The position numbers and the translations under genes were made by a program. Below the pieces are notes generated by a model. The model saw only the letters and a program-made list of their open reading frames with translations. It was not told where the DNA came from and made no database searches. From an uncultured Pseudomonadota bacterium (GTDB lineage Bacteria > Pseudomonadota > Alphaproteobacteria > RF32 > CAG-239), in NCBI GenBank assembly GCA_949286215.1, contig CASDYX010000004.1, forward strand, positions 20,001 to 84,000: 64,000 nucleotides of DNA. Direction: 5' to 3'. Numbering within the stretch: position 1 is the first letter of the stretch; each line of letters starts with the position of its first letter. Positions 1-32,934 of the stretch are shown here, one piece after another.

Positions 1-3000
1 AAATCACACTGCCTGTTCCGGTCGGAGAGGCTTCTGTTTTTCCTAAGCTCCGACGGTTCTTTTCGAGTTCACGTTTTCCGGTTACAACTGGGTCATCAAT
101 AAATACATCTTTCTTGCCTTGTCCACCAAGTTCTTTCGGATTGCGGTCTCTGGTTCTCATCCACAAATCTACGTTCGGATAAACAATAATGCGTGTGCCG
201 GCGGGAACATAGGTCAGCGGACGAATATTGGTCTTATCTGATAAGATTTGCTCAAATACTTGATTCATCTGATTCAAGAAGTTTTGGCGGGCATCGTTAG
301 CTGCTTGTTGTTTCGGGGTTTCATTTACACCCGAGTTGTCATTTTCATCATCTGCCATAATGTATGACGTATAGCTGGTTAGGGCCGTGGTCATAATCGG
401 CAAAGTATATTTCTTGAACAATTGTTGATCAAGATAACCCAGTGCGCCTCCTCGACCTTGGGCGTCTCCGGTAACACCGCTAAAGACAAACAATGAACCA
501 TCAGGACGAATGAGTCTTTCCCATGTTATTTGAACTTTTGCTGACTGAGATGTGGTTTCGGTTGTTCCGGTCAAACTTCCCAATGTGCCCATAATTCGGC
601 TTCCGGCGGGAATTATGATATTCCGTCCTTCTTCTGCATAAACATTTCGCTCGACAAATGCTGTTACCGGTGTTGGGTTATTACTGTCTATTGAACGAGC
701 TATAACTGCCGGAATCGGTTTATCTGCAAATATCATTTCACTTAAGTCAACTCGCCATGAAGATATTGCTTTTTTAATTCCTTGTTCGTCCCAATCTTTT
801 TGCATACCATCAAAAGTATCAGGGCTAATATTGCTGCTGATTTTTCCAACTTGCATATTGCTGCGTCGCTCTTGTTGAGCTGCGTCTAAAGCCATAGCTC
901 GTTGCGGGTCATATCTTTCTCCAGGACCAAAACCACCTCCAGGGCCGAGGTTTCCGCCAGGTCCTGTTCCTGTACCATAAGCTCCTCCTTGTCCAAAGGT
1001 TCCGGCCGGAATAAACATATCTTCGGCTGATGGTTTTGAGGTTTCTTCTATACCGATAAGGGCTCCTTCATCATCAATAACTAAGCCATCTGGCATACGA
1101 TGACCGACAACTTTTCCTTCTTTATTGACAACGCTGCCATCTTCCATAATATCGCCCAAATATTCTCCGTCTGGCGTTAAGGCAATACCTAATGAACGAC
1201 GATATTTCTCGGTCATTTTCTCTTCTTCGGGAGAAAGGCCAATTTCTGGTATGGAACTTGGGCGATTATACCAACCGGGACGACTGACCTTTCCTATTAC
1301 TTTTCCATTTTTATCTAGAACTTCGCCCTTTTCATTTACTTTACCTATTACGTTGCCGTCTTTATCAACAACCGTGCCATCGGGAAGAACTTTTCCTATG
1401 ACATTGCCATTTTCGTCATAGGCTAGATTTTCTTCTTTTTGGGGAGAAATAATTGAACCAATGGTATTGCCGTTGGCATCTATAATTGCACCGTTTTCTC
1501 CCAGCTTTCCAATTACCTTGCCGAAATTGTCAACGACCGTACCGTCTGGGAGAACTTTTCCTATGACATTGCCATTGGCATCATAGGCAACTTTGCTACT
1601 GGCTAATTCACCAATTACATTACCGTTTTTATCTACAACTTTTCCGTTTTGTACAGAACCGATTATTTTACCATTCTCGTCTGTTACGGTTCCATCGGCA
1701 TTAACATAACCTAAGAGATTTCCATTAACATCAAAAACTTTCTCTCTAGCAACTATCTCTCCATGATATTGAAGCGGTTTGGCAACGGCTATGACACGGC
1801 CATTGCTATCAATTATGCTGCCACTTTTGGTGATAGTTCCTAAAACATTATTATTTACATCTCGTAATTCGCCTTTTAGATTTAATTCACCTAAGATGCG
1901 GTTTGAATCGTCTCTGATGTAAAAGTCTCTGTTTCCGCGACCTTTTAGCTCTCCATTCTTATCAAGCAGGAAGCCTTTACTCAAAGTTCCTAAATTTTGA
2001 TTTACAAAAGATAAGACGCTGCCATCTTTCTGAATAACGCCAATTACCTCAAAGTCATTATCATAAATATAAAAATCATATAAAGCGTAACCTATTTTGT
2101 AGCCATCTTTTGTGACATTTCCCTCAAAGTCTACTTGACCAATGTTGTCTCCGCGAGCATCAATAACGGCACCATCTTGGGTGATATGACCTATATATTT
2201 GTTAGCATTGCTAAAGGCATAGTGATATTTAAACAGATGGCCTATCGGAGCACCGGTTTTTGAATTTACATTACCGTTTGCTTGCTCATAGCCGATAAAT
2301 TGATTTTCGGAATTTACGACCTGACCGTCTAAAACGCTGCGTCCAAGAATAACACCATTAAAACTCATTACCGGATAGTATTCAATGGTGTGTGCCAAAG
2401 AGACGCCTTCATCATTCTTTAAGAAGCCTCGCTTATCAATACAGCCCAAAATATTGTTGCTATAATTCAAAACTTGTCCGTTACTGGAAACTGTACCAAT
2501 TATGTTGCCATTATAATCAATAACAGCTGTCGGGTTGACGCTATAGCCGACATAAGAGCCGTTTTCTGAAACAACTTGTCCATTGAGCAAAGGTCTTCCC
2601 ATGACGGTTTCTCGATAATTGCGAACTTCTCCGCGAGAGGTAATAACACCTAAGAAAGAGCATTTATCGTCTATGGCGGTTGCATAATCTATAACACCAC
2701 CAATTGCAGAACCGGTATTGTCAAGCAAAGTTGCTTCGGAGGTGACTTTTCCTAGATTTGAACCGCCGAAATCTTTGGCTATACCTAAATTATTAACATA
2801 ACCGGCTAAACGACCATTAAAATATAGTGCTAAAGAAGCTTTTCGCCCTGTACCTTGCTGAGGCATCATATTTACTGACGCATTATCTGATGAAGAAACT
2901 AATGCTCCGTCAGGAATATATTTTCCGACGACGTTGCCGCTCGTTTTTTCGACCAGATTTCGGTTATTCAATAAACCAAGTGATTCTCCTTTTGAATCTA

Positions 3001-4489
3001 CAAAATAGCCATTTTCCAGACTTTTACCGATGATTAGGTTTCGTTCATCAACATTAAAACCGGATTGTGTTAATTTACCCAAGGCAGCAACATTCTTGTT
3101 GGTCAACTGTCCGTTAGGCATTATTTGAGCTACCGGCGTACCTGTAATGTTATAAATTGAGGATAAGGTTAAGCCTCGTCCAACCGACTTGCCGTCTGCT
3201 GAAAAAAGATAACCAAACGGAGACATATATTTTTTCTCTTCTCCATCCATAACAGAACCGCTAATACCCACAATTCCTAAGCTCTGGTTATTAGAATTCA
3301 CGGCTAATAAATTGTTCATTGTGGCGCCTATTGCGCGTCCGGTATTTTCGTATGCCATATTATCCATAATATAGCCGGCGGGCGTTCCTTCCATAGTTAC
3401 TATAGAGCCATTCTTTGAAGCATGTCCCTTTAGTGCTCCGCGATAATCAAAAACAGGTCCGGTTTTGATAATTTTACCAATGAGTTTTCCATCTGAAGAA
3501 AGGATTGCTCCTCTCGGACCGACTTGACCAATGTCGTCTTTTGCTTTGCGGACTTTTCCTTGAGGAACTACTCGTCCTAAATATTTACCATTTAAATCTG
3601 TAGCCGTTGCCGAAAAATCAACTACGGATCCTATAATTTCACCTTGTAAATTGACAATATTTTCATCTGCCTGAACACGACCGACAATATTGTTCTTATC
3701 AACGACTTCACCGTTGTATGTAACGAAGCCTAAATATTTTCCAGAGTTATCCAAAGCATAACCTGAACGAACAATACTTCCCATGATTTGATTGTCTTTA
3801 TTATAAACAAAACCATTGGCCTTGACATAACCAATCGTTTGAGCATCAAAATTGGTAACATTTCCTCCGGGGGAGACACTGCCGATAAAATCCCCACTTA
3901 GAGATACAACCATTTTTGAGGAAATCAGACGTCCGTCTAAAATATAATCTTGTCCGACTTTGCGATAGGCATAGCCGTCAGGAGATACAAAACCGATTGC
4001 CTGACCTTGTAAATTTGTGTATAAGCCATCGCCTGTCAAACGACCGACAGTTTTTCCATCGTCTGAATAAACAAGCCCAGGAAACAAAACAGAACCAACA
4101 ACATTAAAATATTCATCCAAGACCAAGCCGTTGGGCAATACTTTTGCTATTATTTTTCCTGAAGGAAGACGAACGGAACCATCATTATTGACTTTACCTA
4201 AGGGTTTATTATCATTGCCGATTGCAATACCTTGAGGAACAACGCCACCGATGATTGCGCCGTCAAAATCCAAAATCAAGCTGTCGGCCGTTACATTGCC
4301 GATTAATTGGTTGTCAAAACTTACGACTTTACCATCGGGAATAACTTTTCCGATTAAATCTCCGTTAAAGTCAACCGCCGTAATCTCCTGAGCTTGCGCA
4401 TTAAAGCAAAAGAGCAACATTCCCAAAAGAATGTTGAAAAATCTTAGTGTTTTGGCACAGTTTTTCTTTTTTGTTTTTTCCCGTCCCAA
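1..4489 (-). CDS. Giant tandem-repeat secreted or surface protein, N-terminal about 1500 aa; the ORF continues past the window start. Paralog of 4491..8414.
   Basis: The minus-strand frame is open from 4489 to position 1 with no stop, which is why it is missing from the ORF track. The only plus-strand ORFs here are short antisense artefacts. The likely start is TTG at 4487-4489, 6 nt after GGAGGA and 1 nt after the upstream TGA. The N-terminus KTKKKNCAKTLRFFNILLGMLLFCFNAQA/QE resembles a signal peptide. The body translates to repeats of the form NGN[VI]IG[KR]VxPDGTVVD, for example ...AVDFNGDLIGKVIPDGKVVSFDNQLIGNV... Confidence 0.6.
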   Translation of the reverse strand, partial: MGREKTKKKNCAKTLRFFNILLGMLLFCFNAQAQEITAVDFNGDLIGKVIPDGKVVSFDNQLIGNVTADSLILDFDGAIIGGVVPQGIAIGNDNKPLGKVNNDGSVRLPSGKIIAKVLPNGLVLDEYFNVVGSVLFPGLVYSDDGKTVGRLTGDGLYTNLQGQAIGFVSPDGYAYRKVGQDYILDGRLISSKMVVSLSGDFIGSVSPGGNVTNFDAQTIGYVKANGFVYNKDNQIMGSIVRSGYALDNSGKYLGFVTYNGEVVDKNNIVGRVQADENIVNLQGEIIGSVVDFSATATDLNGKYLGRVVPQGKVRKAKDDIGQVGPRGAILSSDGKLIGKIIKTGPVFDYRGALKGHASKNGSIVTMEGTPAGYIMDNMAYENTGRAIGATMNNLLAVNSNNQSLGIVGISGSVMDGEEKKYMSPFGYLFSADGKSVGRGLTLSSIYNITGTPVAQIMPNGQLTNKNVAALGKLTQSGFNVDERNLIIGKSLENGYFVDSKGESLGLLNNRNLVEKTSGNVVGKYIPDGALVSSSDNASVNMMPQQGTGRKASLALYFNGRLAGYVNNLGIAKDFGGSNLGKVTSEATLLDNTGSAIGGVIDYATAIDDKCSFLGVITSRGEVRNYRETVMGRPLLNGQVVSENGSYVGYSVNPTAVIDYNGNIIGTVSSNGQVLNYSNNILGCIDKRGFLKNDEGVSLAHTIEYYPVMSFNGVILGRSVLDGQVVNSENQFIGYEQANGNVNSKTGAPIGHLFKYHYAFSNANKYIGHITQDGAVIDARGDNIGQVDFEGNVTKDGYKIGYALYDFYIYDNDFEVIGVIQKDGSVLSFVNQNLGTLSKGFLLDKNGELKGRGNRDFYIRDDSNRILGELNLKGELRDVNNNVLGTITKSGSIIDSNGRVIAVAKPLQYHGEIVAREKVFDVNGNLLGYVNADGTVTDENGKIIGSVQNGKVVDKNGNVIGELASSKVAYDANGNVIGKVLPDGTVVDNFGKVIGKLGENGAIIDANGNTIGSIISPQKEENLAYDENGNVIGKVLPDGTVVDKDGNVIGKVNEKGEVLDKNGKVIGKVSRPGWYNRPSSIPEIGLSPEEEKMTEKYRRSLGIALTPDGEYLGDIMEDGSVVNKEGKVVGHRMPDGLVIDDEGALIGIEETSKPSAEDMFIPAGTFGQGGAYGTGTGPGGNLGPGGGFGPGERYDPQRAMALDAAQQERRSNMQVGKISSNISPDTFDGMQKDWDEQGIKKAISSWRVDLSEMIFADKPIPAVIARSIDSNNPTPVTAFVERNVYAEEGRNIIIPAGSRIMGTLGSLTGTTETTSQSAKVQITWERLIRPDGSLFVFSGVTGDAQGRGGALGYLDQQLFKKYTLPIMTTALTSYTSYIMADDENDNSGVNETPKQQAANDARQNFLNQMNQVFEQILSDKTNIRPLTYVPAGTRIIVYPNVDLWMRTRDRNPKELGGQGKKDVFIDDPVVTGKRELEKNRRSLGKTEASPTGTGSVI

Positions 4490-4490
4490 C

Positions 4491-7400
4491 TCAGTTCCTC
4501 CGGTTCTTTGCAACTTCCTGCAACGCATAGCCTGCAACTTTCTTATCCAAATTTACATATGAACCGTTGTTTTTAAGATAACCGACATTCTTGCCTTCGC
4601 TGTCTTGTACAATGCCTTCTGCATTTAAGCGACCGACGTAATTGCCGTCATTTCCTAAAATTGTGGCTCCTATCTTATAAATTTTTCCTATTATGTTGTC
4701 ATTGTTATCTATTGCCAAATCACCAGAAATGGCTCGACCAATGAGGCTACCTTCTTTGTTTCTGATTTTACCATCAAAATTTACATAGCCTACAACTTTA
4801 TCTGAGTTATCAATAACTATATCACCGTGGACAACTTCTCCGATTAATTTTCCTGATGCGCTGATTACATTGCCGTCTGACAAAACTCTGCCAACGACAA
4901 CATTTTCTTTATCAACAACTTGTCCGTTAGGCAACACTGAACCTATTGTATTACCCCCAAAATCAATAACGGTCCCTCTCCTTAGCAGACTCAGATTTTT
5001 ATCTGTCGAACCTCCTGGTAAAACAGCTGTAATTACTTCATTTTTCAAGTCTATTACGTCACCTATCGAATTTACGCGACCTTTATAATTTCCCCAAATA
5101 TCTACAACAATATTTTCGGGTATAACCTCGCCGATTACCGTCCCCTTCAAATCGATAACTTTACCATCAGAACTGGTGGTTCCGACTTTTGCTCCTTCCA
5201 TGCTGATAACCGTACCGTCTGTCGTAGCATAGCCTAAGAATGCTCCGTCATAACCAATTGCACTGCCTCTGGAAACAACTCCACCACGATAAAGCCCCTT
5301 GTTATCAATAAAATTGCCTTTAGCGTCTATTCGCCCTAAATTTTCACCAAAACGCGTAATAACTTGTCCGTCATGCGTAACCAAGCCTATCGTTTTGCCT
5401 TCAAAATCTGCTACAAAGCCTTTTTTGACGGTATTTCCTATCAAAGAATTGTAGAAATTCAGACCATCACCGTGGAGGCGACCGATTGCATTTCCTTTAG
5501 CGTCATAAACTTCTCCGTTGGGGAAAAGACGACCTTTGAAATTGCCTTCCGGAGAGATTATGGTTGCTTTTTCATCCATTAAAACACCAATAATTTCATT
5601 ACGGTCGTTAGCGACTAAATCATTGGCAAAAAGTTTGGCATCTGATTGTCCACTTATCGCAACTCGACCGTTTGGCCCTACTAGATTTAAGAAATTACCG
5701 TGTAAATCATAGGCATTCGTTTTTTCTAAAACACGACCAATATAGGCTCCGTCTTTATTGAAAACATCTCCGTAAGTGCCGACACAACCAACGGGAAGTT
5801 GTGATAAAGCTATAACCAAACCATCAGCAGAAACTTGCCCTAGGTATTCTCCGTCATAAGATAAAGCAACACCATTCCGGACAACACTTCCTATCACATC
5901 GCCTTTTTCACTTAATACCGTGCCATCAGGATTAACGCAACCAACGTAAACCCCTTCAGAAGAACGAACTATACCATCTGTTCCGACATCACCCATATAA
6001 GTACAATTGTTATCAAAGACTTTTCCGGTGCGCACAACTTCTCCGACATAGTTGTTTTCGGGGTCAACAATCACTCCATTGGGCATTGGTTTTAGCTTGG
6101 TTTCAGTATTGCCTTTTTTTATCTTACCATCAGCATCTAAATAGCCGATATTCTTACAACCATAACCAACAACCAAACCGCCCCTTACTAATTTGGCTAC
6201 GACTTCTGAACCCGAAGTATCACGAACCAAACCATTGGATAAAACTCGGCCAACAATTTTACTGTTTTGAACAACCGTTCCGTCGTTGTTGAGCTTTCCA
6301 AGAACTGTACCTTTCGGGGTAATCGGTATCATGCGGGTTTGAACCAATGCTCCTAATGTCTTATTTTGTGAGCTGATAATATTGCCGTTTTCATCAACAT
6401 AACCTATTTCATTACCATTTAGGTCAAATACTTTTCCGTTGGCATCAACATACCCGATAACCTTTCCGTCTTTATCTAAGACAAGATTAACAACCTCACC
6501 GGCTTTTCCGATAACATTTCCTTCCAAATCGACCAAAGTGCCATCGTCTAACATTTTTCCGATGATATTGCCGTTGAAATCAACAACGTTACCGTTTTCA
6601 TCAATATAGCCAATAACATTTCCATCTTTGTCGTATGCCAAGCGTCTTTGTGCGCCAATACTCATATCGGCAACTTTGCCTATGACATTACCGTTATTGT
6701 CAACAACCGTGCCATCGGGCAAAACACGACCTATAATATTGCCATTAGCATCTCGAACGTTGCCATCTTCATCCACATAACCTATGACATTGCCGTCTTT
6801 ATCATAGACCAAACGTCTGCCGGGGACATTTGCTGCTCGTCCTATTGTATTGCCCTCAGAATCCACAATTGTACCATCTGGCAAGACTTTTCCGATGATA
6901 TTGCCATTCAAATCTACGACATTACCGTTTTCATCAACTCGACCTATTATATTGCCGTTTTTATCATAAGCTAATCGTCTTTGAGGGATGGATACGGATT
7001 TTCCGATAATATTGCCATTTTCATCGACGACATTTCCATTGGCGTCGGTTTTACCTATTATATTGCCATTAGAATCGACAACATTTCCATTTGAATCAAC
7101 AAATCCTATAACCTTACCATTTTTATCATAAGCCAATTTTACCGAGCCACCGGCATTGCCTAAAACATTTTTGCCAACAACTTTTCCGTTTTCATCAACA
7201 TGACCAACAATATTGCCGTTTTTATCTACAACTGAACCGTCGGGCATTACAACACCAATCACATTTCCGTTTTCATCAACGGCAACGCGTCCTTGTTTGC
7301 TTACTCGACCAATTACTTTACCGTTAGCATCAACAGCCTCTCCGTTTGCATTGAGACGTCCGGTCACATTACCGTTCATATCAACAACCGTACCATCAGG

Positions 7401-8414
7401 CATGACACGACCGACAATATTGCCGTTTTCATCATATACAAATCCGGCGTCAACCGCTTTACCTATAACATTTCCATTAAGATCAACAACCGTGCCGTCG
7501 GGGAGCATACGACCAATTATGTTACCATCTTTATCAACTACCGTGCCATCGGGATTAACATAGCCAATAACATTACCATTAGCATCATAGACCAATCGAC
7601 GATTTTCTGCTACGCCTATGACATTTCCGTTTTCATCGACAATCATCCCTGCCGAATTTGCTCGTCCGATAATATTTCCATTGGCATCACGCACATAACC
7701 ATCTTCATCAATGGTACCGATTATTTCACCATTAGGACCAATCGCATTTCTTGTGCGGAGACCTTTTGCTTCCTGCCCATCATTTGCTTTGGCTCCATCT
7801 GTCGGAACTTGCTCACAGAAATTGCAATCTTCTTTGCGGATAGCGTTTCCTTCTACTGGAACTTTTTCTGATTTTGCATTTGCTGTTGTTAAATTGGATT
7901 CATGCCAGGTTATGATAAAATTATTTTGTACATTACCAGGCACAACCGGTGTCCAACTCATTGTGATATCACAAGTTTCATGACCGCGCAGTTCTTTATC
8001 CGTACAATCATCCTTAAAGGTAAAACCATCAAAAGGAGGTTCTGCCAATTGAACAGAAACAATTTTTATGGCTGCTTTGGCATTTGTTCCTATGGTCAGA
8101 ACATTTTTAGCATCCGTGCCCAAAACGACTTGCCCCATCTGTACCGGATTTGGGGTGGTTGTTATCGGAGGTTCTTTATCTTCAATCATCCCAAATTCAA
8201 TATTATTGCTTGTGCCGTTATCGGCGGCAATATTTAAGGCATCATCATTGGTTGTAAATACGGGTTCCGTATATTCATTTTCAACCGGACCACTTTGCAT
8301 TAAAAGCATTACACCCAGAACAAAGATTACAAACGAGGTAATACCAACCACAAATATTATGCGGTTGGTCTTCTTTATATAACTCTCCGAATGTGTTAAT
8401 ACCTCTTTGCTCAT
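4491..8414 (-). CDS. Giant tandem-repeat protein of 1307 aa. It has an N-terminal TM/signal anchor, about 40 copies of a 17-residue (10+7) repeat with consensus xNGN[VI]IG[KR]VxPDGTVVD, and a degenerate repeat tail.
   Basis: Complete ORF. The ATG overlaps the virB9-like stop as ATGA at 8411-8414. The N-terminal hydrophobic stretch is IIFVVGITSFVIFVLGVMLL. Spacing between Gly positions in the repeat region alternates 10 and 7 residues. Confidence 0.8.
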   Translation of the reverse strand: MSKEVLTHSESYIKKTNRIIFVVGITSFVIFVLGVMLLMQSGPVENEYTEPVFTTNDDALNIAADNGTSNNIEFGMIEDKEPPITTTPNPVQMGQVVLGTDAKNVLTIGTNAKAAIKIVSVQLAEPPFDGFTFKDDCTDKELRGHETCDITMSWTPVVPGNVQNNFIITWHESNLTTANAKSEKVPVEGNAIRKEDCNFCEQVPTDGAKANDGQEAKGLRTRNAIGPNGEIIGTIDEDGYVRDANGNIIGRANSAGMIVDENGNVIGVAENRRLVYDANGNVIGYVNPDGTVVDKDGNIIGRMLPDGTVVDLNGNVIGKAVDAGFVYDENGNIVGRVMPDGTVVDMNGNVTGRLNANGEAVDANGKVIGRVSKQGRVAVDENGNVIGVVMPDGSVVDKNGNIVGHVDENGKVVGKNVLGNAGGSVKLAYDKNGKVIGFVDSNGNVVDSNGNIIGKTDANGNVVDENGNIIGKSVSIPQRRLAYDKNGNIIGRVDENGNVVDLNGNIIGKVLPDGTIVDSEGNTIGRAANVPGRRLVYDKDGNVIGYVDEDGNVRDANGNIIGRVLPDGTVVDNNGNVIGKVADMSIGAQRRLAYDKDGNVIGYIDENGNVVDFNGNIIGKMLDDGTLVDLEGNVIGKAGEVVNLVLDKDGKVIGYVDANGKVFDLNGNEIGYVDENGNIISSQNKTLGALVQTRMIPITPKGTVLGKLNNDGTVVQNSKIVGRVLSNGLVRDTSGSEVVAKLVRGGLVVGYGCKNIGYLDADGKIKKGNTETKLKPMPNGVIVDPENNYVGEVVRTGKVFDNNCTYMGDVGTDGIVRSSEGVYVGCVNPDGTVLSEKGDVIGSVVRNGVALSYDGEYLGQVSADGLVIALSQLPVGCVGTYGDVFNKDGAYIGRVLEKTNAYDLHGNFLNLVGPNGRVAISGQSDAKLFANDLVANDRNEIIGVLMDEKATIISPEGNFKGRLFPNGEVYDAKGNAIGRLHGDGLNFYNSLIGNTVKKGFVADFEGKTIGLVTHDGQVITRFGENLGRIDAKGNFIDNKGLYRGGVVSRGSAIGYDGAFLGYATTDGTVISMEGAKVGTTSSDGKVIDLKGTVIGEVIPENIVVDIWGNYKGRVNSIGDVIDLKNEVITAVLPGGSTDKNLSLLRRGTVIDFGGNTIGSVLPNGQVVDKENVVVGRVLSDGNVISASGKLIGEVVHGDIVIDNSDKVVGYVNFDGKIRNKEGSLIGRAISGDLAIDNNDNIIGKIYKIGATILGNDGNYVGRLNAEGIVQDSEGKNVGYLKNNGSYVNLDKKVAGYALQEVAKNRRN

Positions 8415-10057
8415 TGCGTCCTTACTACGCTACAAAACACTCCGTTTCTTCCTAAACGACTGCACACATTATCGCCTGATTCCAAACTCTTTACAGGACC
8501 TACGCGTAAGTGAAACAGTTCTTTTCCTTGTCCATCTGCCGGTGCATCTACTGAGAAGAATGGCTCATAACGGCTCAAAACATCAGGATACTTTTTAGAA
8601 AGCTCACTCCACAAATTTTCCAAATTAGAGACATTGGCATCTGTTCCTAACTCAATTGAAATGTTTGAGCTGTCAGCATCAACAAATCCTGAACCAAAAC
8701 CATATCCGCCCTTGCTGCCTCCTTGAGAGCCACTATTTCCGGCATATTGATTATTGTTCTTTATGTGTTGCATTTTGGAATAATCATATCCATCGTTAGG
8801 CGGCTGGAAGCCAATATTTACGCCATTGCCGTTATTTCGGCCATTTGCCATATTATTGCCATAACGAGGAACAACTATTTCACTTTGGCCAACTTGAATA
8901 TCGTATTGTCCGGGCATGCCACCATTGGCTGAAGAATTAAATTCACTATCTCCACCGGATCCTCCCGTCGGGCGCATTGTTCCTCCCGGAAGCGGAGCCG
9001 GAACATCCCATGCGGCATCATCAAAATCTGTGGCGTAAGTTGCATTTTCCAGACCGGCGTCATCCGAACGGCGCATCTTTAAGCAAACAAGTCTTTTACC
9101 GTTACGCAAAACCATATCGCCAATACCTTCAACAATAATCAAGCGATTGTTCGGGCCTTTAGTTCTAAAGCCAACCGGAACTTCTATTCTTTCAACAATT
9201 AATGTGACTATCGGACGCTGTGTCATATTTAGAGCTTTTTCACCAAAATCAATATAAGTGAAAATATCATCTCTCCATACTCTTTCAGGTGCAATAACAA
9301 CATCATCAGGATTTGGAACATAAACCTCAATATCAAATCTAAATTTGCTAGGATCAACAGGAATGTCTTTTATCCAATCACTTCTTTGAAAGCGCTTGGT
9401 AAAAAGAGAATCTGCAGAGTGCGAATTATTAGCTTTGTAGGTTGAGGCGTTCACTCCCGAACCACCGCCGACACTGCCTCCGGATATTCCGGCTCCTCTT
9501 GAGCCTGCCGGTCCATCAATCACATCAATATCAATGATAGAGTTGGTCAAACGTTCTGTATTTACGCCTTCACTTTTTACATAAAATACATATTTATTTC
9601 CTGAACGACCAAAAATAATGATATTAGTATCAACGCCGACATTTGCTCCTTTTCGAGGATAGAGCAAAATTGTATTCGGACCGGAAATTTGCCCATCAAA
9701 TGTCGCATTGTCACCGATATACATATCCTCAATTAGTTCCCACTCAGGAAAATTAAGCAAAGTTATCATACCTTCACGAAGACGTATCGGCAAAATTAAA
9801 TCCGGTGACCAATAGTATTTAGAATATGCCGGTTTGCTTTGACCTTCACCCAGATTTTGGAGCGGATCGAGCCAAGCAGCCTGCGTCATTCCCAAAGAAT
9901 TAAAGCCGGCATAGCCAAGATTCATCGGCATATATTGCCCCTGACTTTGGTCGGCGTTTTGATCCAGACTGCCCATTGTTGCCTGAGATAGAGCATTACG
10001 GCTCAGCGTCAACGCAACGACCATTACTAATAAACTTTTGCCAACTTTCAAAATCAT
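8411..10057 (-). CDS. virB9: VirB9/CagX/TrbG-family outer-membrane core protein with a Gly/Asn-rich linker and a C-terminal SPOR-like peptidoglycan-binding domain
   Basis: It has a signal peptide MILKVGKSLLVMVVALTLSRNALSQA. The N-domain ILPIRLREGMITLLNFPEWELIEDMYIGDNATF...NTILLYPRKGANVGVDTNIIIFGRSGNKYVFYV fits the VirB9 N-domain pattern. The C-domain FRFDIEVYVPNPDDVVIAPERVWRDDIFTYIDFGE...RLIIVEGIGDMVLRNGKRLVCLK fits the VirB9 C-domain pattern. The C-terminal stretch ...ELFHLRVGPVKSLESGDNVCSRLGRNGVFCSVV resembles the FtsN SPOR motif RVVIGPVKGKENADSTLNRLKMAGHTNCIRL. Confidence 0.7.
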   Translation of the reverse strand: MILKVGKSLLVMVVALTLSRNALSQATMGSLDQNADQSQGQYMPMNLGYAGFNSLGMTQAAWLDPLQNLGEGQSKPAYSKYYWSPDLILPIRLREGMITLLNFPEWELIEDMYIGDNATFDGQISGPNTILLYPRKGANVGVDTNIIIFGRSGNKYVFYVKSEGVNTERLTNSIIDIDVIDGPAGSRGAGISGGSVGGGSGVNASTYKANNSHSADSLFTKRFQRSDWIKDIPVDPSKFRFDIEVYVPNPDDVVIAPERVWRDDIFTYIDFGEKALNMTQRPIVTLIVERIEVPVGFRTKGPNNRLIIVEGIGDMVLRNGKRLVCLKMRRSDDAGLENATYATDFDDAAWDVPAPLPGGTMRPTGGSGGDSEFNSSANGGMPGQYDIQVGQSEIVVPRYGNNMANGRNNGNGVNIGFQPPNDGYDYSKMQHIKNNNQYAGNSGSQGGSKGGYGFGSGFVDADSSNISIELGTDANVSNLENLWSELSKKYPDVLSRYEPFFSVDAPADGQGKELFHLRVGPVKSLESGDNVCSRLGRNGVFCSVVRTQ

Positions 10058-10078: not shown

Positions 10079-10813
10079 TTATCGAACTTTGTTTAGCGTC
10101 AATGAATATCTATCTACCGTAAAGCCGACCGGGTTATTTAATCGTTCACCATATTTTACGCTTTTTTTAACATAACCGACACGGAGAGATGCCGTCCAAT
10201 AATTTATTTCCGGCTTAACAGAATCCGGATACATATCTTGAGTTTCATATTCTACTTGCCAAAGTCCTTGACCAAGCTCATTTACCGTTAAGATACGAAC
10301 ATTTCTTTGCAGGCTCTTGGTTCGGATAATTTCGATTGCCCTTTTAGCCGTCTTATTCAAAAATTCTTGATAAACTGCCGGAGAAGACATTTCTTGTATC
10401 GGGCCGCCCGGCATCCAACGAGCTTCCATTTCCGGAATATCCCTATCAAAAGAACTCCTTTGCAACACATATTCTCTCACAAACACTTCGGTAATGGCTT
10501 TTTCATCTGCCAAATTGCCCCTAACAGGAACAATATTATAAACCTGTTCCCCCTTTGCCTGAAACGTTAATAAAAACGGCTCTATACGGAACAAAGGCAT
10601 TACTTGAACAATTGCCAAAAACAACACGACATTACAGCACAAACTAATAGCTGTAATTACGGCGAATGCACGAGCCGTCCAAAGATATCTTTTTTCACCG
10701 ACATTCGCAACGAAGACGTCTTCCGTCGTACGAGACTTAACTTGCGACTGAGGACGCACCTGTCCCCCACCAATAAGACGTTGCTGTGTGTTATTTTCCA
10801 GACGATTATCCAT
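10079..10813 (-). CDS. virB8: VirB8-family protein: N-terminal cytoplasmic tail, one TM, and a periplasmic NTF2-like domain
   Basis: The single TM is AFAVITAISLCCNVVLFLAIVQV. The C-terminal NPVGFTVDRYSL matches the VirB8 NPxGF signature. Its size is 244 aa. Confidence 0.75.
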   Translation of the reverse strand: MDNRLENNTQQRLIGGGQVRPQSQVKSRTTEDVFVANVGEKRYLWTARAFAVITAISLCCNVVLFLAIVQVMPLFRIEPFLLTFQAKGEQVYNIVPVRGNLADEKAITEVFVREYVLQRSSFDRDIPEMEARWMPGGPIQEMSSPAVYQEFLNKTAKRAIEIIRTKSLQRNVRILTVNELGQGLWQVEYETQDMYPDSVKPEINYWTASLRVGYVKKSVKYGERLNNPVGFTVDRYSLTLNKVR

Positions 10814-10821
10814 TGGTTTTC

Positions 10822-11010
10822 CTAAATCGTTTCAACAAACCAATCGGGAAGATTTTTAGGCAGTTCAACCTGCATACAAGCGCAAGGTGATAACTTCAAT
10901 TCATCAACACCTTTACCAACGCCTACCGGTTCAGCCTCATAATATGAACCAAAAATGCCGCAAGATGATAGCAGCATGAGCACAAAAAGCATAATTATCT
11001 TTTTTGACAT
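10822..11010 (-). CDS. virB7: Small lipoprotein, VirB7-like by position and size
   Basis: It is 62 aa with the lipobox LLSSC in MSKKIIMLFVLMLLSSCG. It sits between the two virB8 paralogs. Confidence 0.55.
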   Translation of the reverse strand: MSKKIIMLFVLMLLSSCGIFGSYYEAEPVGVGKGVDELKLSPCACMQVELPKNLPDWFVETI

Positions 11011-11124
11011 GTCTTAATTTCCTTATCTATATTATTCGAGTACTCTTATAGATGTTATGAAATTATACTCTTTTTCATTAAAAGTCTAATATCGTCTTGC
11101 GAAAATCCCCAACTTATCAACAAA

Positions 11125-11883
11125 CTATAATATTTCTACTTCAGCTTGCGAGTAGCGCGTGACGGTAAAACCTATCGGATTAATCAATCTCAAGCCCGTA
11201 AATTCTCGCCCGGGGATGAAAAATGCCGTGACTGATGCCGTCCAATATTTAACTGTCATTATTCTGGCGCGGGTCTTTTTATCTACCGCATATTTTGATA
11301 ATTCATAAGTTTTGAAATCCACTTTCCAGACAGGGCTTCTCTCTCCGCCTTGTTTGCCTATGGAGATAATTTCTACTTCTCTAACTATGCCATCGTGGCG
11401 CATTTTTTCCCAAATGCTGTCACGGTACTGAGAAAACTCGTTATAAACTCTTGGAGCTGACAAAAAATTAACCATTCCGCCGTCATACCAGCGAACTTGC
11501 ATTTCTCTTTCATCATCAATTATGGTGTTGCGAAGAATTACAAATTGCGCAACAAAAATTTCCATGAGCTTGTTTTTAGATGCCATCCGGTTTGTAATTG
11601 CTTCTGCGCGAACTATCCCCTCAGATGTATCTTGATTGATGATTAAAAACGGCTCGACCGAAACCTGTGGCGCTAACTTAAAAAGGGCCAAAGAAAAACT
11701 CATAAACACTAAAAGTGATAATATTGCAAAAAATATAAAAAGACGTGAAAGCCACATATAATATTTAAGCTTAAAGCCTTCTTTTTCTTGCTCTGTTTCG
11801 CTGATGAACTCGTGCGTTTGGCCGTTAGAATCCGTCAATGACAGAACCTTGGCGCCTTCTAACTGCGGATTTATATTGTTCAT
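11125..11883 (-). CDS. virB8: VirB8-family paralog
   Basis: The TM is LFIFFAILSLLVFMSFSLALF. The C-terminal INPIGFTVTRYSQ matches the VirB8 signature and parallels 10079..10813. Confidence 0.7.
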   Translation of the reverse strand: MNNINPQLEGAKVLSLTDSNGQTHEFISETEQEKEGFKLKYYMWLSRLFIFFAILSLLVFMSFSLALFKLAPQVSVEPFLIINQDTSEGIVRAEAITNRMASKNKLMEIFVAQFVILRNTIIDDEREMQVRWYDGGMVNFLSAPRVYNEFSQYRDSIWEKMRHDGIVREVEIISIGKQGGERSPVWKVDFKTYELSKYAVDKKTRARIMTVKYWTASVTAFFIPGREFTGLRLINPIGFTVTRYSQAEVEIL

Positions 11884-11898: not shown

Positions 11899-14800
11899 TT
11901 AATATGCTGCACAGAAAGGTATCGGATAAGCATTTATTTGTTTTTCAAATTCTTCATCGGCTTTTTTCTTGTATTCCGATGTTACTTGATGGTTGACTTC
12001 TTCCGTCTTTATTTGTTCATCTAATTCCGAACCACTGTCTGTGGCATCATTTAATGATATGTATGCTTCCTTATCTTTGCGCAAAGCAGTAAATATATTC
12101 TTAATCTTATCTACTCTTTCTTCAACTATTTCATTCTCCATCACATTAACTGCACTTAATTCTTCTGTTCCCTCATTTACTAATGTGTTTTTATAGCGCA
12201 TCAGTGTTTCTTTGGTTAAGTCATAGTCTTCTTGCTTTGCTAAGTCATAATCCGCACGCGGGGTAAAGCCTATCTTTTCAAATTGTTCAAACAAGTCTGC
12301 TTTGGCTTCATCTACGCTCAACTTCATTTCCTCAAGCGCTTGACGATAGCTGATTTCTTGTTCAACAAAGCTCAAGAAATTGCCGATTTGGTTATGATTC
12401 AATAAGGCTTTTTCATATACTATATCTTGCATATTCTCAGTATATGATCCGCCATTTTGTTCTTCTGCCATTTTTTCTAAACGTGTTAATACGGTGTTGG
12501 GGGCATCATTGTAATATAGGCCAGAATCCGTTGCCTTTAACAATGTGCCTAGTTCACTATGCGCACCATTTTCTTCTTTTTCTTGCGAGGTGAGAACTTT
12601 GGCTGAGGCGGTTACATCTTCAACTTTATCTTTTATTGTTACGTATCTCTTTATTTGCCCTAAGATGCCGGGGGCCTTTTCTATGCTTATTTCGTTACAT
12701 TGCGGCATTTGGCTGATTTCCTCTTGATTGGCAAGAGTTTGCTTATTATAGACGCTAAATGTTCCATCCTCATTGACTAAATCTACAATTTGGTCATCCA
12801 AAATACAGGGGTATCTGCCACCGCGCATAAAGTTTGCTGCTTCGTCCCCCTCGGATAACAAGGTTTTTAGGTCAATATCCTTATCAACAAAAGCCTTGTC
12901 TTTTAAGATTAATTTCCATATTTCAGGGAATTTTCCTCCACTGTTAAGGAAACCTTCTTTGCTGATTCCTCCATCTGAAGTTTTTCCTACATTATCAGAA
13001 TCGACATCGTCAAAGTGTACAACCTCTCTGAGTGGCGGTAAATATTCTTTAAGAGAATTTTTCGGAGCCATAAAATCGCGCTCTTTGCCATATGAACCAA
13101 CAAAATATTCCGAATCCTCTTGCATGCAAACATCTTCGGCACAGGCCTTTTCTATTAACATTTTTTGAAACATCGTTGTCAGAGGTTCAATGATAGATTT
13201 TGTTTTTGCATAGGCTCCTACTGATGATGAGAATTCTTGCAAGCCCTCAACAGGTAATGCTTTTAATTTTGTCATTAAATTTTGGTGCAGACTTAAAATC
13301 TTGTCTCCATAAGCACCAATGTACACATCTTCTCCTAAATTTAATATTGCATTGTGGGTATCATCAACCAACTGAATGGCGTATTTTCTCGTATCATCCG
13401 TTAAACCATTGGCTGTTTGCAAAATATTTAACAAACTAAACGCAGGCTTAATTCCATCTATTCCAGGTACGGGAAGTCCTATTTTATCTTTATAATAGGC
13501 AATTAAGTCCAAAGTTTCTTTTGCTTGGCGCTTTTCTTCTATGTATTTTTTAGCTTCTTCTAATTTGGTGTTATATGCCTGCTCTATTTGTTGAACTTGT
13601 GCAATATAATTTTTTTCAACAGCATCTATATCGGCATCAATGGCTTCTATCTGCTCATTTATTGCCCCTATTTCTTTATCCTTACTATCAACCTGAGCCT
13701 TCAGACTTGAGGCTAGTTTGTCTTTTTCTTGTACTTCGGATTGATAACGGTTGATTTCTTCTTTTGCAAAAGTCATCCCCTCCGTATCTTCCAAATTGAG
13801 GACTTCGGTTTCACTATTGTTGGTTGCCGTATATTCTGCACTTTGTGCGGCTTGGGTTTTCTCTTCTACGACATCCGTTGTTTCCAGAGTATTTACATCT
13901 ACCGTTTCTTCGACTTTTGCATCAAGCTCTGCATCTAACTTGGCCTTTTCTTGCTCATAGTTAAAGGTGTTATATTGTGCGCCAAAATATAGTGTTCTAC
14001 TCAGACTATATTTGGTCGTATTCTGAGGTGCATAGTCTCCGTTATCACTAAAAGGCCGACGACGAAACAGTGTTTTCTTTTCTGTGTTGGACTGAGACCC
14101 TGTGGAAGAATTATTCTCCGGATATAGGCTTAATGAACCATCTGGATTGCTGATAACATTTGATTGTTCCAAATTTTGTTTTTCTTGAACTTGTTGTTGC
14201 TTTGCTTGATAGTTTAACTTGTTCATTTTGTCTTTATATTCGGAAATAGCTTCACTGGTATCAAAAAGCATTTTTTGCTCAGTATTTTCCTTATATTCCG
14301 TCGAGTAAACCTGCTTTGTGGTTTCCGGACTAATTTCATAGGTTTCTGATGTATACTCAACATCACTTTGCTTTATGATATTGTCCTCAATATTGCCTTG
14401 GCGGTCTTCAAGATCTTTAAGCATTTTTTCTTGCGTCGAAATCCCTGCTTGTGCGGATAGTTTATCTTCTTGTACTGTATTGAGTTGTTCGGAATAATCT
14501 GATAATAGACTTGAAGCCTTATCTAATTTTGCCTGCAGGTTCTTTTTTTGGCTTTCTAAACTTTGGAGGCGAGATTGCTTTGTGTTTAGAGCCTGTTGCA
14601 ATAAATCATCTCGATTTTTTTCTAACTCTTCCAATACGGTAGCCGGATCTGAAGTTGCGGCTTCTTTCTTCAATTGTGCAGCAAGACTATCAAGACCTGC
14701 TCGATTGTTGGCTCTTTCGTCCGCATCTTCTGTTAAGATGTCATTGAGAGGATAGGCTATCTCTACTATAATTGAGCTAACATCGTACTGTTGTAAGTAA

Positions 14801-16512
14801 TCTTTGATATTGCCATACTTACCGCTCAGATATTGATTATAAAAACTGATTTGATCGTTCCATATTGGAAATTTTTCTGTCGGCGTACCCCATTGTGGCG
14901 TTGTTTTATGTTGATCTTCTACCAACATCTGCGCTGCCTCTGAGCCTATGTTGAAAGATACCATTTGAGATTCCCGTGTGGATTCTTCTATCTTCTCGGT
15001 TTGGCTTGCATCTACCAAACCGTTACTGTTTTTAGTTTCCAGCTCTTTTTGAATTGTTTTAAATCCATCGGCATCATCTATATCAACATCAGTGCTGATT
15101 TCAATTGTTCCCAAATCTTCCGGCTCTATCGGGGTGCTTTCTTCTGATTTTGCTAATTCAAATGCTTTGACAGCCCAACCAGATAAACCTTGGCGAGCAT
15201 CATAGTCATTGGTGGCAGCATCAGCCATATTGCCTTTCCATACTGTTTGAGGAGATGAATAGTAACGGCCTAAATATTGCATAACACATTGGTCTGATGC
15301 ATCTACAGCTTCAATTGCTTTTTGGTGTAATCTTTGATATTGCTGATAGCTCTTAAATATTTCCTGATAACTGTCCAATGCTTGTATTAAATTATGGACC
15401 TCCAGTGCTTCTTGGGCTTTTTCATATACAGGAGCAATTTTATCTAATTCCTTAATTTTTTCTTCATTGCCGGCAAATGGAGAATCAATGTTTGGCTTGG
15501 TTGCCTCTCCAAAGGTGACATTTCCGTAAAGGGACGGATTATAGACATAATCTTCATCATCATCTTGGGTCGTTGTGGTTTCTGCCGCTGTTTGAGATGA
15601 TTTGAGATTGAAATCGGCTTGTGTAATAAAACCTAATTGACCAAACATTAAGGTTTCTTGCCGCGAAACAACACCTGAAGAAGCAAATTTTAACGTCTCA
15701 TGAGTGCTATTGAAAGATGTTTTTTCTTGAGCAGCTTTTTCTTTGGCTTCTCTCTCTTCTTTGCTGACATAGTCTGCAGGAGTAATTTGGTTATGCAGTA
15801 AAAGAGCCGCTTCGTATTGAATTTTCATAGCCAAGACTTCTTGGGTTATTTTTAAGATACTGTCCATGGTTTCATAAGCGTTAAAAGCATTTTTCCAAGC
15901 ACCGTTTTCGTCATCACCACTTTCGGCTCCATCAGCGCCGGAACTACCACCGGCAAATGTGGTTGAAAGTTTGTCAACCTCTACCGTCAAGGTTTCCAGC
16001 TCTTCTTCCAACTTTCGAGAAGATGTATAAATTTCAATAACCGTATCTTCATAAAACTCTTGCGCTTTAGCTTCATAAGCTCTGCATTGCTCATATTCAT
16101 CGGCACCTTTATCACAATCAACAGGATAAGCTAAAAACAGCTCATATAAGGCCTGTTTTACGGAATTGGCATCATAAATATCGGCTGTTTTTGTTTCTTC
16201 AATGGTTTTAGAACCTGGCATGTCCTTTTTTTCTTTTTTTTGGAACAAGCCACTCATGAAACCTGTAAATTTAGACATATATTTGTCTTTAGCCGCCTTA
16301 ACTGCCGCAGTAGCATTGTTGGCATAAGTTTGGAGTTGAGCTGCGGCCCCTTGCGCTGTAGCTGCAATATTTTGTGAAGCTCCGGCCACATCTGTTGGAG
16401 CATCCCCTGTCGGAGTAAATGGCCCCGGGGGTAGAAGAAAGCCATAAGAAGACATTGCCGAACCAAGAATCAGCATAGAAGAAAGAGTAATTATTTTGAG
16501 TAGTTTAATCAT
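11899..16512 (-). CDS. 1537-aa secreted acidic coiled-coil protein with no transmembrane segments
   Basis: It has a signal peptide MIKLLKIITLSSMLILGSAMSSYG. The sequence is E/K/Q/D-rich with heptad-like stretches, and the translation shows no hydrophobic helices. It lies between virB8 and the upstream secreted-protein genes. Confidence 0.7.
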   Translation of the reverse strand: MIKLLKIITLSSMLILGSAMSSYGFLLPPGPFTPTGDAPTDVAGASQNIAATAQGAAAQLQTYANNATAAVKAAKDKYMSKFTGFMSGLFQKKEKKDMPGSKTIEETKTADIYDANSVKQALYELFLAYPVDCDKGADEYEQCRAYEAKAQEFYEDTVIEIYTSSRKLEEELETLTVEVDKLSTTFAGGSSGADGAESGDDENGAWKNAFNAYETMDSILKITQEVLAMKIQYEAALLLHNQITPADYVSKEEREAKEKAAQEKTSFNSTHETLKFASSGVVSRQETLMFGQLGFITQADFNLKSSQTAAETTTTQDDDEDYVYNPSLYGNVTFGEATKPNIDSPFAGNEEKIKELDKIAPVYEKAQEALEVHNLIQALDSYQEIFKSYQQYQRLHQKAIEAVDASDQCVMQYLGRYYSSPQTVWKGNMADAATNDYDARQGLSGWAVKAFELAKSEESTPIEPEDLGTIEISTDVDIDDADGFKTIQKELETKNSNGLVDASQTEKIEESTRESQMVSFNIGSEAAQMLVEDQHKTTPQWGTPTEKFPIWNDQISFYNQYLSGKYGNIKDYLQQYDVSSIIVEIAYPLNDILTEDADERANNRAGLDSLAAQLKKEAATSDPATVLEELEKNRDDLLQQALNTKQSRLQSLESQKKNLQAKLDKASSLLSDYSEQLNTVQEDKLSAQAGISTQEKMLKDLEDRQGNIEDNIIKQSDVEYTSETYEISPETTKQVYSTEYKENTEQKMLFDTSEAISEYKDKMNKLNYQAKQQQVQEKQNLEQSNVISNPDGSLSLYPENNSSTGSQSNTEKKTLFRRRPFSDNGDYAPQNTTKYSLSRTLYFGAQYNTFNYEQEKAKLDAELDAKVEETVDVNTLETTDVVEEKTQAAQSAEYTATNNSETEVLNLEDTEGMTFAKEEINRYQSEVQEKDKLASSLKAQVDSKDKEIGAINEQIEAIDADIDAVEKNYIAQVQQIEQAYNTKLEEAKKYIEEKRQAKETLDLIAYYKDKIGLPVPGIDGIKPAFSLLNILQTANGLTDDTRKYAIQLVDDTHNAILNLGEDVYIGAYGDKILSLHQNLMTKLKALPVEGLQEFSSSVGAYAKTKSIIEPLTTMFQKMLIEKACAEDVCMQEDSEYFVGSYGKERDFMAPKNSLKEYLPPLREVVHFDDVDSDNVGKTSDGGISKEGFLNSGGKFPEIWKLILKDKAFVDKDIDLKTLLSEGDEAANFMRGGRYPCILDDQIVDLVNEDGTFSVYNKQTLANQEEISQMPQCNEISIEKAPGILGQIKRYVTIKDKVEDVTASAKVLTSQEKEENGAHSELGTLLKATDSGLYYNDAPNTVLTRLEKMAEEQNGGSYTENMQDIVYEKALLNHNQIGNFLSFVEQEISYRQALEEMKLSVDEAKADLFEQFEKIGFTPRADYDLAKQEDYDLTKETLMRYKNTLVNEGTEELSAVNVMENEIVEERVDKIKNIFTALRKDKEAYISLNDATDSGSELDEQIKTEEVNHQVTSEYKKKADEEFEKQINAYPIPFCAAY

Positions 16513-16525
16513 TCTTTTTCTCCTT

Positions 16526-27914: not shown

Positions 27915-28253
27915 TTAAATGTTACCAAATGTGGTTGCTAAGCCTGCTTCGGTAGAACCGGTTGCATATTCAACGATTGAACCTGCGGCTGCCAAAATTG
28001 CCAAACCTACTGCAAGGCCGGCAAACCAAGTCCATTTTACCTTACCAATAATTGCTGAGTAAGCAATACCGACCAAACCGAAACCACCTAAAATAAAGGT
28101 AATGGTTTTAACACTATCAAATACGTTACGTGTTTTCGTAGTTGCAGTATTCATCAAGCTGGCACCATCAGCCCAAGCTTCTCCACAAAAACCCATTGCT
28201 ACAATCAAGGTCAAGCAGCAAAGAGTTAAAATATTTTTCTTAATAAATTTCAT
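27915..28253 (-). CDS. virB2: VirB2/TrbC-family pilin
   Basis: It is 112 aa with a signal peptide ending AWA/DG and two hydrophobic helices. It is the first gene of the minus-strand cluster. Confidence 0.75.
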   Translation of the reverse strand: MKFIKKNILTLCCLTLIVAMGFCGEAWADGASLMNTATTKTRNVFDSVKTITFILGGFGLVGIAYSAIIGKVKWTWFAGLAVGLAILAAAGSIVEYATGSTEAGLATTFGNI

Positions 28254-30554: not shown

Positions 30555-30620
30555 GCCTTGGTAATAAGTCGTGCCTGACGCTTGATTATTTATTTTTCAA
30601 TATGTATTATAGGGAAAAAT

Positions 30621-32922: not shown

Positions 32923-32934
32923 GGATTTATAAAA

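Follow-up and report, generated by a model that had tools for sequence, protein, structure and literature searches.

The window analysed here is a stretch of 64,000 nucleotides (contig CASDYX010000004.1, positions 20,001 to 84,000 of the forward strand) from an uncultured alphaproteobacterium, and this report concerns a virB9 homologue in its type IV secretion system (T4SS) cluster. Behind the two VirB9 domains and a long linker, the product of this gene carries an additional C-terminal domain that is predicted to have the SPOR fold. The open reading frame (ORF) at 8411-10057 on the minus strand is confirmed as a VirB9 homologue of 548 amino acids (aa) with an ATG start, and its components are as follows.

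8411-10057, minus strand: the virB9-SPOR gene, 548 aa plus a stop codon at 8411-8413 that overlaps the start codon (ATG, 8412-8414) of the gene that follows.
9983-10057, minus strand: putative signal peptide, aa 1-25, read from the sequence (MILKVGKSLLVMVVALTLSRNALSQA followed by T across the likely cleavage site), with a helix predicted over residues 2-21.
9824-9982, minus strand: conserved N-terminal extension of 53 aa (aa 26-78) ahead of the VirB9 N-domain, with 53% invariant columns.
9518-9823, minus strand: VirB9 N-terminal domain, aa 79-180, covered by Pfam CagX and by a profile match to residues 31-97 of Xanthomonas citri VirB9 (6gyb).
9413-9517, minus strand: variable, Gly-rich loop (aa 181-215) that connects the VirB9 N- and C-domains, with 3% invariant columns.
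9065-9412, minus strand: VirB9 C-terminal domain region, aa 216-331, covered by Pfam CagX, by TIGR02781 (aa 251-326) and by matches to 6gyb residues 174-253 and TrwF 7o3j residues 165-247.
8669-9064, minus strand: hypervariable linker rich in G, N and S, aa 332-463, about 130 aa, with 2% invariant columns and a predicted local distance difference test score (pLDDT) below 50.
8414-8668, minus strand: C-terminal SPOR-fold domain, aa 464-548, from Pfam, hhalign, AlphaFold, Foldseek and conservation.
8651-8653, minus strand: codon for E469, which takes the place of the Gln of solved SPOR domains (FtsN Q251, RlpA Q270; PMC6895207).
8504-8512, minus strand: H516-L517-R518 codons (strand b3), where RlpA has R309 and R311 and FtsN has R285 (PMC6895207).
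8432-8464, minus strand: C532 to C542 (C-x9-C), an invariant cysteine pair running from helix a2 to the start of b4, and a candidate disulfide.

The assignment of the first part of the protein to VirB9 comes from several profile comparisons. Pfam CagX/VirB9 (PF03524) matches aa 79-327 with 44.3 bits against a cut-off of 34.2, spanning profile positions 4-196 of 198, and a family profile built from a diverse alignment finds X. citri VirB9 in the PDB (6gyb, E 1.7e-7, residues 31-97 and 174-253 of 255) as well as TrwF of R388 (7o3j, E 4e-4). A less diverse full-length profile matched nothing in the PDB at E <= 0.01, and the P-type VirB9 equivalog of NCBIfam (TIGR02781) is not reached, at 29.6 bits against a cut-off of 217.7 with the C-domain alone aligned. 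By its sequence the 548-aa protein is thus a divergent VirB9 lying outside the P-type equivalog. The initial annotation, made from the window's letters without database searches, had recognised both VirB9 domains and a linker rich in G, N and S, and these are borne out by the CagX match, by the matches to 6gyb and 7o3j, and by the composition of residues 346-466 (G 21%, N 12%, S 10%). The signal peptide has no lipobox Cys and reads as a signal peptidase I type.

The organisation resembles that of canonical VirB9, TraO and TrwF proteins (6gyb, 7o3j and pKM101 2ofq) in its signal peptide, N-domain, variable linker and C-domain, and in the placing of the gene after virB7/virB8 and before virB10. 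It differs from them, however, in that canonical proteins are about 255-295 aa long and end right after the C-domain (at residue 255 in X. citri), whereas this one has the 53-aa N-terminal extension, the Gly-rich loop, and a further ~217 aa of tether and SPOR-fold domain. Because a canonical VirB9 stops where the C-domain match stops, the last ~217 residues are an addition. C325 is invariant within the C-domain region, and W350 and P357 are invariant shortly past the C-domain. The linker varies in length from 103 to 147 aa among homologues, and carries two semi-conserved motifs, PGQYDIQVG.SE.IVP (aa ~382-397) and DYSKMQ.I.NN (aa ~425-435).

Three independent lines place the end of the protein in the SPOR fold. 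First, Pfam SPOR (PF05036) matches aa 467-546 with 27.0 bits against a cut-off of 21 (E 5.9e-6; profile positions 6-76 of 76). Second, hhalign aligns the tail-family alignment with one of the FtsN, DamX, DedD and RlpA SPOR domains of Escherichia coli, extracted from NC_000913.3, with 93% probability and E 3.3e-7 over 71 columns. Third, an AlphaFold model of aa 450-548 from 36 sequences has a pLDDT of 87, with 10-residue blocks over the domain at 88-98, and a predicted beta-alpha-beta-beta-alpha-beta topology (b1 466-473, a1 476-494, b2 498-504, b3 514-520, a2 525-536, b4 543-546) that ends precisely at the C-terminus of the protein. When this model was compared by Foldseek with 350,542 PDB chains, the SPOR domain of Pseudomonas aeruginosa RlpA took ranks 1 and 3 (6i09 and 6i05; target-normalised template modelling (TM) score 0.76, root-mean-square deviation 2.5 A) and that of Bacillus subtilis CwlC rank 2 (1x60), with DedD (6ztg) lower in the list amid generic ferredoxin-like folds of much lower TM score. 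As judged from these profiles and the model, the tail has a SPOR fold, and a search of all six frames of the window with a hidden Markov model (HMM) of the family revealed no second copy of it.

The initial annotation had proposed that the last 70 aa or so closely mimic FtsN and DedD, picking out a stretch ending in ELFHLRVGPVKSLESGDNVCSRLGRNGVFCSVV (residues 513-545), and had suggested a Pfam SPOR scan and a comparison of a predicted structure with the SPOR fold, both of which are positive. A SPOR-like domain is indeed present at the C-terminus, although it is larger than proposed, with ~85 aa (464-548), and the likeness to FtsN and DedD is one of fold and was otherwise overstated: identity to the E. 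coli SPOR domains is ~20%, and HMMER searches of the PDB with the C-terminal 110 aa (phmmer) and with a 27-sequence family profile returned only noise and no solved SPOR domain. The SPOR link therefore rests on Pfam, hhalign and the fold. SPOR domains in general have pairwise identities below 20% (bioRxiv 10.1101/2022.07.01.498525), with which the failure of HMMER to reach the solved examples is in keeping. The Pfam score is also modest, and members of the family straddle the cut-off, with 27, 25, 21, 19, 17 and 14 bits or no match at all.

These two weaknesses, the modest score and the missing HMMER link, are what might be expected if the resemblance were a matter of chance or if the tail were a decaying remnant without function. 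We regard this as very improbable, since the domain is held under strong purifying selection while its tether drifts freely. Among 47 homologues of 66-95% identity, 60% of the columns of the SPOR-fold domain are invariant, similar to the 58-62% of the VirB9 domains, and the figure for the adjoining linker is 2%. In 119 of 120 close homologues the tail forms the very end of the protein, always with C-x9-C, its cysteine pair is invariant family-wide, and the confident fold prediction matches SPOR specifically. A conserved domain behind a drifting linker agrees with a functional module that is flexibly tethered.

A more complex relationship is seen at the glycan-binding site. In the structure of RlpA with bound glycan, Q270 forms hydrogen bonds with the lactyl group of N-acetylmuramic acid (MurNAc) and the N-acetyl group of N-acetylglucosamine, R302, R309 and R311 form a basic patch for the lactyl carboxylate, and F274 and L307 make hydrophobic contacts, with many of the glycan contacts being made by the main chain (PMC6895207). 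The counterpart in DamX of FtsN Q251 and RlpA Q270 is Q351 (PMC6895207). The hhalign register relates the tail to these proteins as listed below, with the equivalences between FtsN and P. aeruginosa RlpA taken from PMC6895207 barring F255/F274 and V287.

E469 corresponds to FtsN Q251 and RlpA Q270.
T472 corresponds to FtsN S254 and RlpA A273.
D473 corresponds to FtsN F255 and RlpA F274, a pairing inferred for these neighbours of S254 and A273.
L514 corresponds to FtsN W283 and RlpA L307.
H516 corresponds to FtsN R285 and RlpA R309.
R518 corresponds to FtsN V287, read off the register, and RlpA R311.
C542 corresponds to FtsN C312 and has no equivalent in RlpA.

The b1 position that is Gln in seven of seven solved SPOR sequences is Glu in all 119 close homologues (position 469), and in the wider family, taken here as members below 50% identity, it is acidic in 24 of 29 (E16, D8, Q1). 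The Phe equivalent to RlpA F274 is replaced by Asp473. The basic pair on b3 is kept, with R or H at position 516 in 25 of 38 wider-family members (R18, H7) and R or K at position 518 in 29 of 39 (R26, K3), although residue 516 of the present protein is His rather than Arg, which softens the match to the basic patch. As aligned, the glycan site is thus part retained, in its basic pair, and part changed, in its Gln and Phe. Since the Gln is Glu here, it does not follow that the tail binds septal denuded glycan, and the septal peptidoglycan that the initial annotation had named as the target of the tether should not be taken for granted; more than anything else, it is this exchange of Gln for an acid that calls for caution about peptidoglycan binding as a whole. 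Taken together, the profile and fold evidence and the basic patch make the tail probably a divergent member of the SPOR superfamily, one that lacks the hallmark Gln.

The cysteines, likewise, are only in part those of known SPOR domains. The C532/C542 pair is invariant in every aligned family member and is a probable periplasmic disulfide. C542 aligns with FtsN C312; FtsN C252, on b1, aligns with L470, and the partner here, C532, lies on helix a2. The E. coli DedD SPOR domain has no Cys. The claim that the paired Cys are those of FtsN and DedD is accordingly not upheld, as only C542 has its match in FtsN, its partner being on a2 and not b1. The a2-b4 region of FtsN adjoins the binding site and depends on its disulfide (PMC6895207). 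Other segments are invariant and specific to this family, namely ADGQGKELFH, LGRNG.FCSVVRTQ and the exact C-terminus.

The genes around virB9-SPOR are organised on the minus strand in the order two VirB2, a 1145-aa protein, a VirB3-sized ORF, VirB4, four ORFs, VirB8, lipoprotein, VirB8, VirB9-SPOR, a 1307-aa protein and VirB10, and include the following.

27915-28253 and 27426-27875, minus strand: two VirB2 pilins.
23964-27401, minus strand: 1145-aa secreted coiled-coil, low-complexity protein with a VirB2/TrbC-like hydrophobic hairpin at aa ~470-546 and no Pfam match.
11899-20981, minus strand: four conserved ORFs between virB4 and virB8, of 773, 261, 451 and 1537 aa, with no significant Pfam or NCBIfam match.
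11125-11883, minus strand: virB8 paralogue a (Pfam VirB8, 64 bits).
10822-11010, minus strand: 62-aa lipoprotein with lipobox LSSC, VirB7-like by position and size, without a Pfam match and conserved in 55 of 55 loci.
10079-10813, minus strand: virB8 paralogue b, directly upstream of virB9 (Pfam VirB8, 75 bits).
4491-8414, minus strand: 1307-aa beta-flower protein between virB9 and virB10, with an ATGA overlap with the virB9 stop.
2-4423, minus strand: virB10, with beta-flower repeats followed by the TrbI barrel, running off the left window edge and with an uncertain start codon.

The segment from virB8 to virB10 (virB8, lipoprotein, virB8, virB9, beta-flower gene, virB10) is kept in this order in 55 of 55 related genomes. 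The two VirB8 paralogues that flank the VirB7-like lipoprotein (10079-11883) form an arrangement that we take to be akin to Rickettsiales rvh clusters, and the VirB4 is 61% identical to a protein of a 'Rickettsiaceae bacterium' metagenome-assembled genome. A ribosomal protein S1 gene (56476-58179) lies in the same window, which confirms a chromosomal setting, and the locus is most likely a chromosomal VirB/rvh-like T4SS from the group of Candidatus Scatocola and its relatives, uncultured alphaproteobacteria of the gut.

The initial annotation described this system as lacking both VirB10 and VirB1. A VirB10 is nonetheless present, with TrbI/VirB10 (PF03743) scoring 117.8 bits in the ORF at 2-4423 on the minus strand, and the reason that it was missed is that the TrbI domain sits behind giant repeats: following an N-terminal signal or transmembrane segment, ~1150 aa of beta-flower, DUF3659 and RHS-like repeats precede the barrel. 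In one orthologous locus (L001) VirB10 is 1541 aa long (15515-20140) and is followed by a VirB11-like ATPase. We note that a VirB10 swollen by repeats brings to mind CagY, a repeat-expanded VirB10 homologue. The neighbouring 1307-aa protein, which is kept in 55 of 55 genomes and from its overlap is probably translationally coupled to virB9, has one N-terminal transmembrane helix, an ASH/Ig-like segment and 13-14 beta-flower repeats.

Equivalents of VirB5 and VirB6 should by position be among the four ORFs between virB4 and virB8, and the 1537-aa ORF far exceeds any canonical VirB6 in size. The hairpin of the 1145-aa protein is related to the two adjoining VirB2 paralogues in blastp comparisons (E 3e-11 and 4e-12), and the protein looks like a giant pilin-like fusion. 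The virB4 gene is interrupted by an in-frame TGA at 22381-22383 on the minus strand, which splits it into ORFs of 368 and 435 aa. Recoding of this TGA was considered and rejected, as relatives have a conserved Arg at this position (EVQ-R-ICR) within an intact VirB4 of 700-800 aa, and many VirB4 relatives are called as longer proteins spanning it, up to 757 aa. The TGA is either a nonsense mutation or an assembly error.

The VirB9-SPOR fusion is not confined to this genome but is conserved across a VirB9 subfamily. More than 1200 relatives are present in a large protein database, nearly all of 520-565 aa, and the fusion is found in 55 of 55 related genomes (at species level), which belong to Candidatus Scatocola, CAG:495 and bins labelled Azospirillum and are all uncultured gut or rumen Alphaproteobacteria. 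Among 1.8 billion cluster representatives 554 relatives were found, and an iterated HMM, run on their last 130 residues, detected the tail in 39 of the 99 listed representatives of at least 330 aa, a count that depends on our own iteration of the HMM over a small set. Without iteration, the HMM identifies the tail on two plasmid-borne VirB9s, that of Erythrobacter aureus YH-07 (WP_115418090.1, E 1e-15) and that of Sphingosinicella sp. BN140058 p1 (WP_129392748.1, E 5e-15), and with iteration also on the one encoded by Microvirga sp. VF16 plasmid pMVF16-3 (WP_203447098.1). The clusters of Erythrobacter, Sphingosinicella and Microvirga, all on megaplasmids, are ordinary conjugative virB2-virB11/virD4 clusters with a MobA/MobL relaxase. 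Pfam calls no SPOR domain in these three plasmid VirB9s, which is probably why the tail has gone unremarked so far. More distant VirB9s, of Azospirillum and Roseibium plasmids, show no tail by HMM.

Two more distant tailed relatives are informative. One, with 45% identity (L066), has the tail together with a single 2717-aa gene that replaces the beta-flower gene and virB10, and the other, with 36% identity, has the tail together with a normal 580-aa VirB10 in a canonical virB8-virB9-virB10-virB11 context. As both relatives carry the tail and differ in their VirB10, the tail is older than, and independent of, the beta-flower elaboration. Moreover, its presence on conjugative-plasmid VirB9s and in canonical virB8-virB11 contexts argues that it is part of the machine rather than a peculiarity of one genome.

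A plausible scenario, and the one towards which we lean by a little, is that the SPOR tail binds peptidoglycan and serves an anchoring or positioning role. The protein would be exported by its signal peptide, and its N- and C-domains would join VirB10 and the VirB7-like lipoprotein in forming the I- and O-layers, respectively, of the outer-membrane core complex. Solved type IVA cores contain 14 VirB7-VirB9-VirB10 heterotrimers, whose VirB9 contributes its C-domain to the O-layer and its N-domain to the I-layer (PMC6536674). The disordered G/N/S tether of ~130 residues may then leave the O-layer into the periplasm, a path that we infer, and let the SPOR domain reach the sacculus, so that with ~14 VirB9 copies per core there would be a ring of ~14 flexible hooks below the outer membrane. 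These could grip glycan strands through the face of the SPOR sheet that bears E469, H516 and R518, with a C532-C542 disulfide perhaps steadying the a2-b4 region, and such binding would either fasten the core complex to the sacculus or place it where suitable peptidoglycan is exposed. The positions that face the ligand in RlpA (469, 516 and 518 here) remain polar or charged across the wider family, which we count in favour of glycan binding; RlpA R309 and R311 bind the lactyl carboxylate of MurNAc (PMC6895207).

Several observations pull in the opposite direction. The modest and straddling Pfam scores and the noise from HMMER bear on the SPOR assignment itself, and the acidic residue at position 469, both in close homologues and in the wider family, and the loss of the Phe to Asp473 bear on the ligand. 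The full-length AlphaFold model, from a shallow alignment of sequences at least 66% identical, has a pLDDT of 42 and gives no exit point for the C-terminus from the core complex. Finally, the in-frame TGA in virB4 means that the machine may be inactive in the present strain.

The altered glycan site also invites a different reading, in which the SPOR fold has been repurposed to bind a protein partner (a core subunit, or a pilus or adhesin component) or another polymer, forming an accessory ring comparable to that of the N0 domain of Xanthomonas VirB7. The loss of the glycan-site Gln and aromatic (E469 and D473) and the family-specific invariant segments could be accounted for in this way, and C-terminal accessory domains on T4SS core subunits have precedent (PMC6536674). 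We nevertheless consider it unlikely, as the b3 basic pair, which in RlpA binds the carboxylate of MurNAc, is retained, and a disordered, length-variable tether of ~130 aa is more easily reconciled with reaching something diffuse, like the sacculus, than with docking at one fixed site. Nor is the tail tied to the additions around it, being found both with a normal VirB10 and with a giant beta-flower VirB10.

Peptidoglycan binding might alternatively serve as a targeting device, the tail recognising denuded or remodelled glycan at the septum or new pole such that the core assembles where the sacculus is open and no VirB1 is needed. Characterised SPOR domains do bring proteins to septal denuded glycan (PMC6895207; bioRxiv 10.1101/2022.07.01.498525), and there is no Pfam domain of a lytic transglycosylase (VirB1, SLT) or hydrolase in the 38 ORFs of at least 150 aa in the window; the region from virB2 to virB11 in five further clusters with a SPOR tail shows no lytic transglycosylase either. 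The key glycan-contact position, however, has Glu or Asp in place of Gln. No transglycosylase is annotated in the tailed plasmid clusters or in the untailed ones of Azospirillum and Roseibium, so that the tail and the loss of VirB1 are uncorrelated as far as the incomplete gene tables of PLSDB go; the tailed Microvirga cluster, moreover, has a 'cell wall hydrolase' 6 kb upstream. We therefore hold the targeting role to be possible but rather doubtful.

A related and similarly speculative proposal, to which we give a low probability, is that the VirB9 tail is a distinct SPOR subfamily, with an acid for the Gln and a helix-to-strand disulfide, that reads some other feature of peptidoglycan (glycan that is modified or carries positive charge, for instance, or the end of a strand), or that reads septal peptidoglycan so as to seed core assembly at division sites. 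If so, a whole alphaproteobacterial T4SS lineage would need no VirB1 transglycosylase to pass through the sacculus and hold on to it.

Anchoring or positioning by peptidoglycan binding, the reading that we prefer, can be placed among known systems. The tail is predicted to share the b-a-b-b-a-b fold and periplasmic location of the SPOR domains of FtsN, DamX, DedD, RlpA and CwlC, and, as in FtsN and DamX, it is at the C-terminus behind a long low-complexity linker. The 'R-x-R/V-G-P' motif of SPOR b3 is kept as H-L-R-V-G-P, and the Cys at the start of b4 equals FtsN C312. It differs from known SPOR domains in its ~20% identity, in Glu or Asp for Gln, in Asp for Phe after the b1 Gly, and in having the probable disulfide partner on a2 rather than b1, and its carrier is a subunit of a secretion machine, not a division protein or a cell-wall enzyme.

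Attachment of trans-envelope machines to the sacculus by a dedicated binding domain, as proposed here, occurs elsewhere. Peptidoglycan anchors include TsaP, with its LysM domain, at the PilQ secretin, ExeA in the type II secretion system and TagL in the type VI secretion system. GspB/OutB, a scaffolding protein of the type II secretion system, is likewise peptidoglycan-binding (PMC9239104). None of these shares its machine, its binding fold (LysM, OmpA-like, PF01471) or its carrier protein with the case described here. Closer to the present case, the Dot/Icm type IVB system of Legionella has DotK and Dis1 as peptidoglycan-binding subunits in its outer-membrane complex (PMC9302130). The predicted binding module of VirB9 resembles these in being built stoichiometrically into the outer-membrane core of a T4SS (PMC9302130), although DotK and Dis1 are separate OmpA-like lipoproteins of a type IVB system, and the VirB9 tail is a SPOR fold fused through a flexible tether to a type IVA subunit. 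Xanthomonas VirB7, whose C-terminal N0 domain decorates the O-layer 14-fold (PMC6536674), is similar as a core subunit that has gained a C-terminal accessory domain; the subunit, the fold and the role are different, as N0 forms a protein-protein ring for which no peptidoglycan binding is proposed.

Within the searchable literature, which leaves most subscription journals outside it, we found no description of a VirB9-SPOR fusion, and tethering of a T4SS to the cell wall in this manner is apparently undescribed. PF05036 is, though, already tagged on many of these VirB9 relatives in the precomputed Pfam annotations of the large protein database, and further SPOR domains invisible to Pfam sit at the ends of proteins annotated merely as 'TrbG/VirB9 family'. 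How T4SS pass through, hold and locate on peptidoglycan is partly understood, the answers being mainly VirB1-type transglycosylases and the OmpA-like subunits of Dot/Icm. A tethered SPOR-fold domain on VirB9 would provide a simple and testable handle on how these machines meet peptidoglycan, adds an acidic-for-Gln variant to the SPOR domains, and occurs in a widespread lineage of uncultured gut alphaproteobacteria, in which the chromosomal T4SS is heavily elaborated in other respects too.

Among the other genes of the window, we note a type IVb pilus cluster at 28554-40182 on the plus strand, divergent from the T4SS, which encodes a TcpQ-like protein, a secretin, an R64 PilO-like protein, a T2SSE ATPase, a T2SSF platform protein, a bundlin-like pilin and a second ATPase. 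It is followed at 41476-44361 (plus strand) by genes for a VWA-domain protein, a PP2C phosphatase and a Ser/Thr protein kinase in tandem. A 1188-aa AIDA-type autotransporter adhesin is encoded at 58474-62040 (plus strand), adjoining the ribosomal protein S1 gene.

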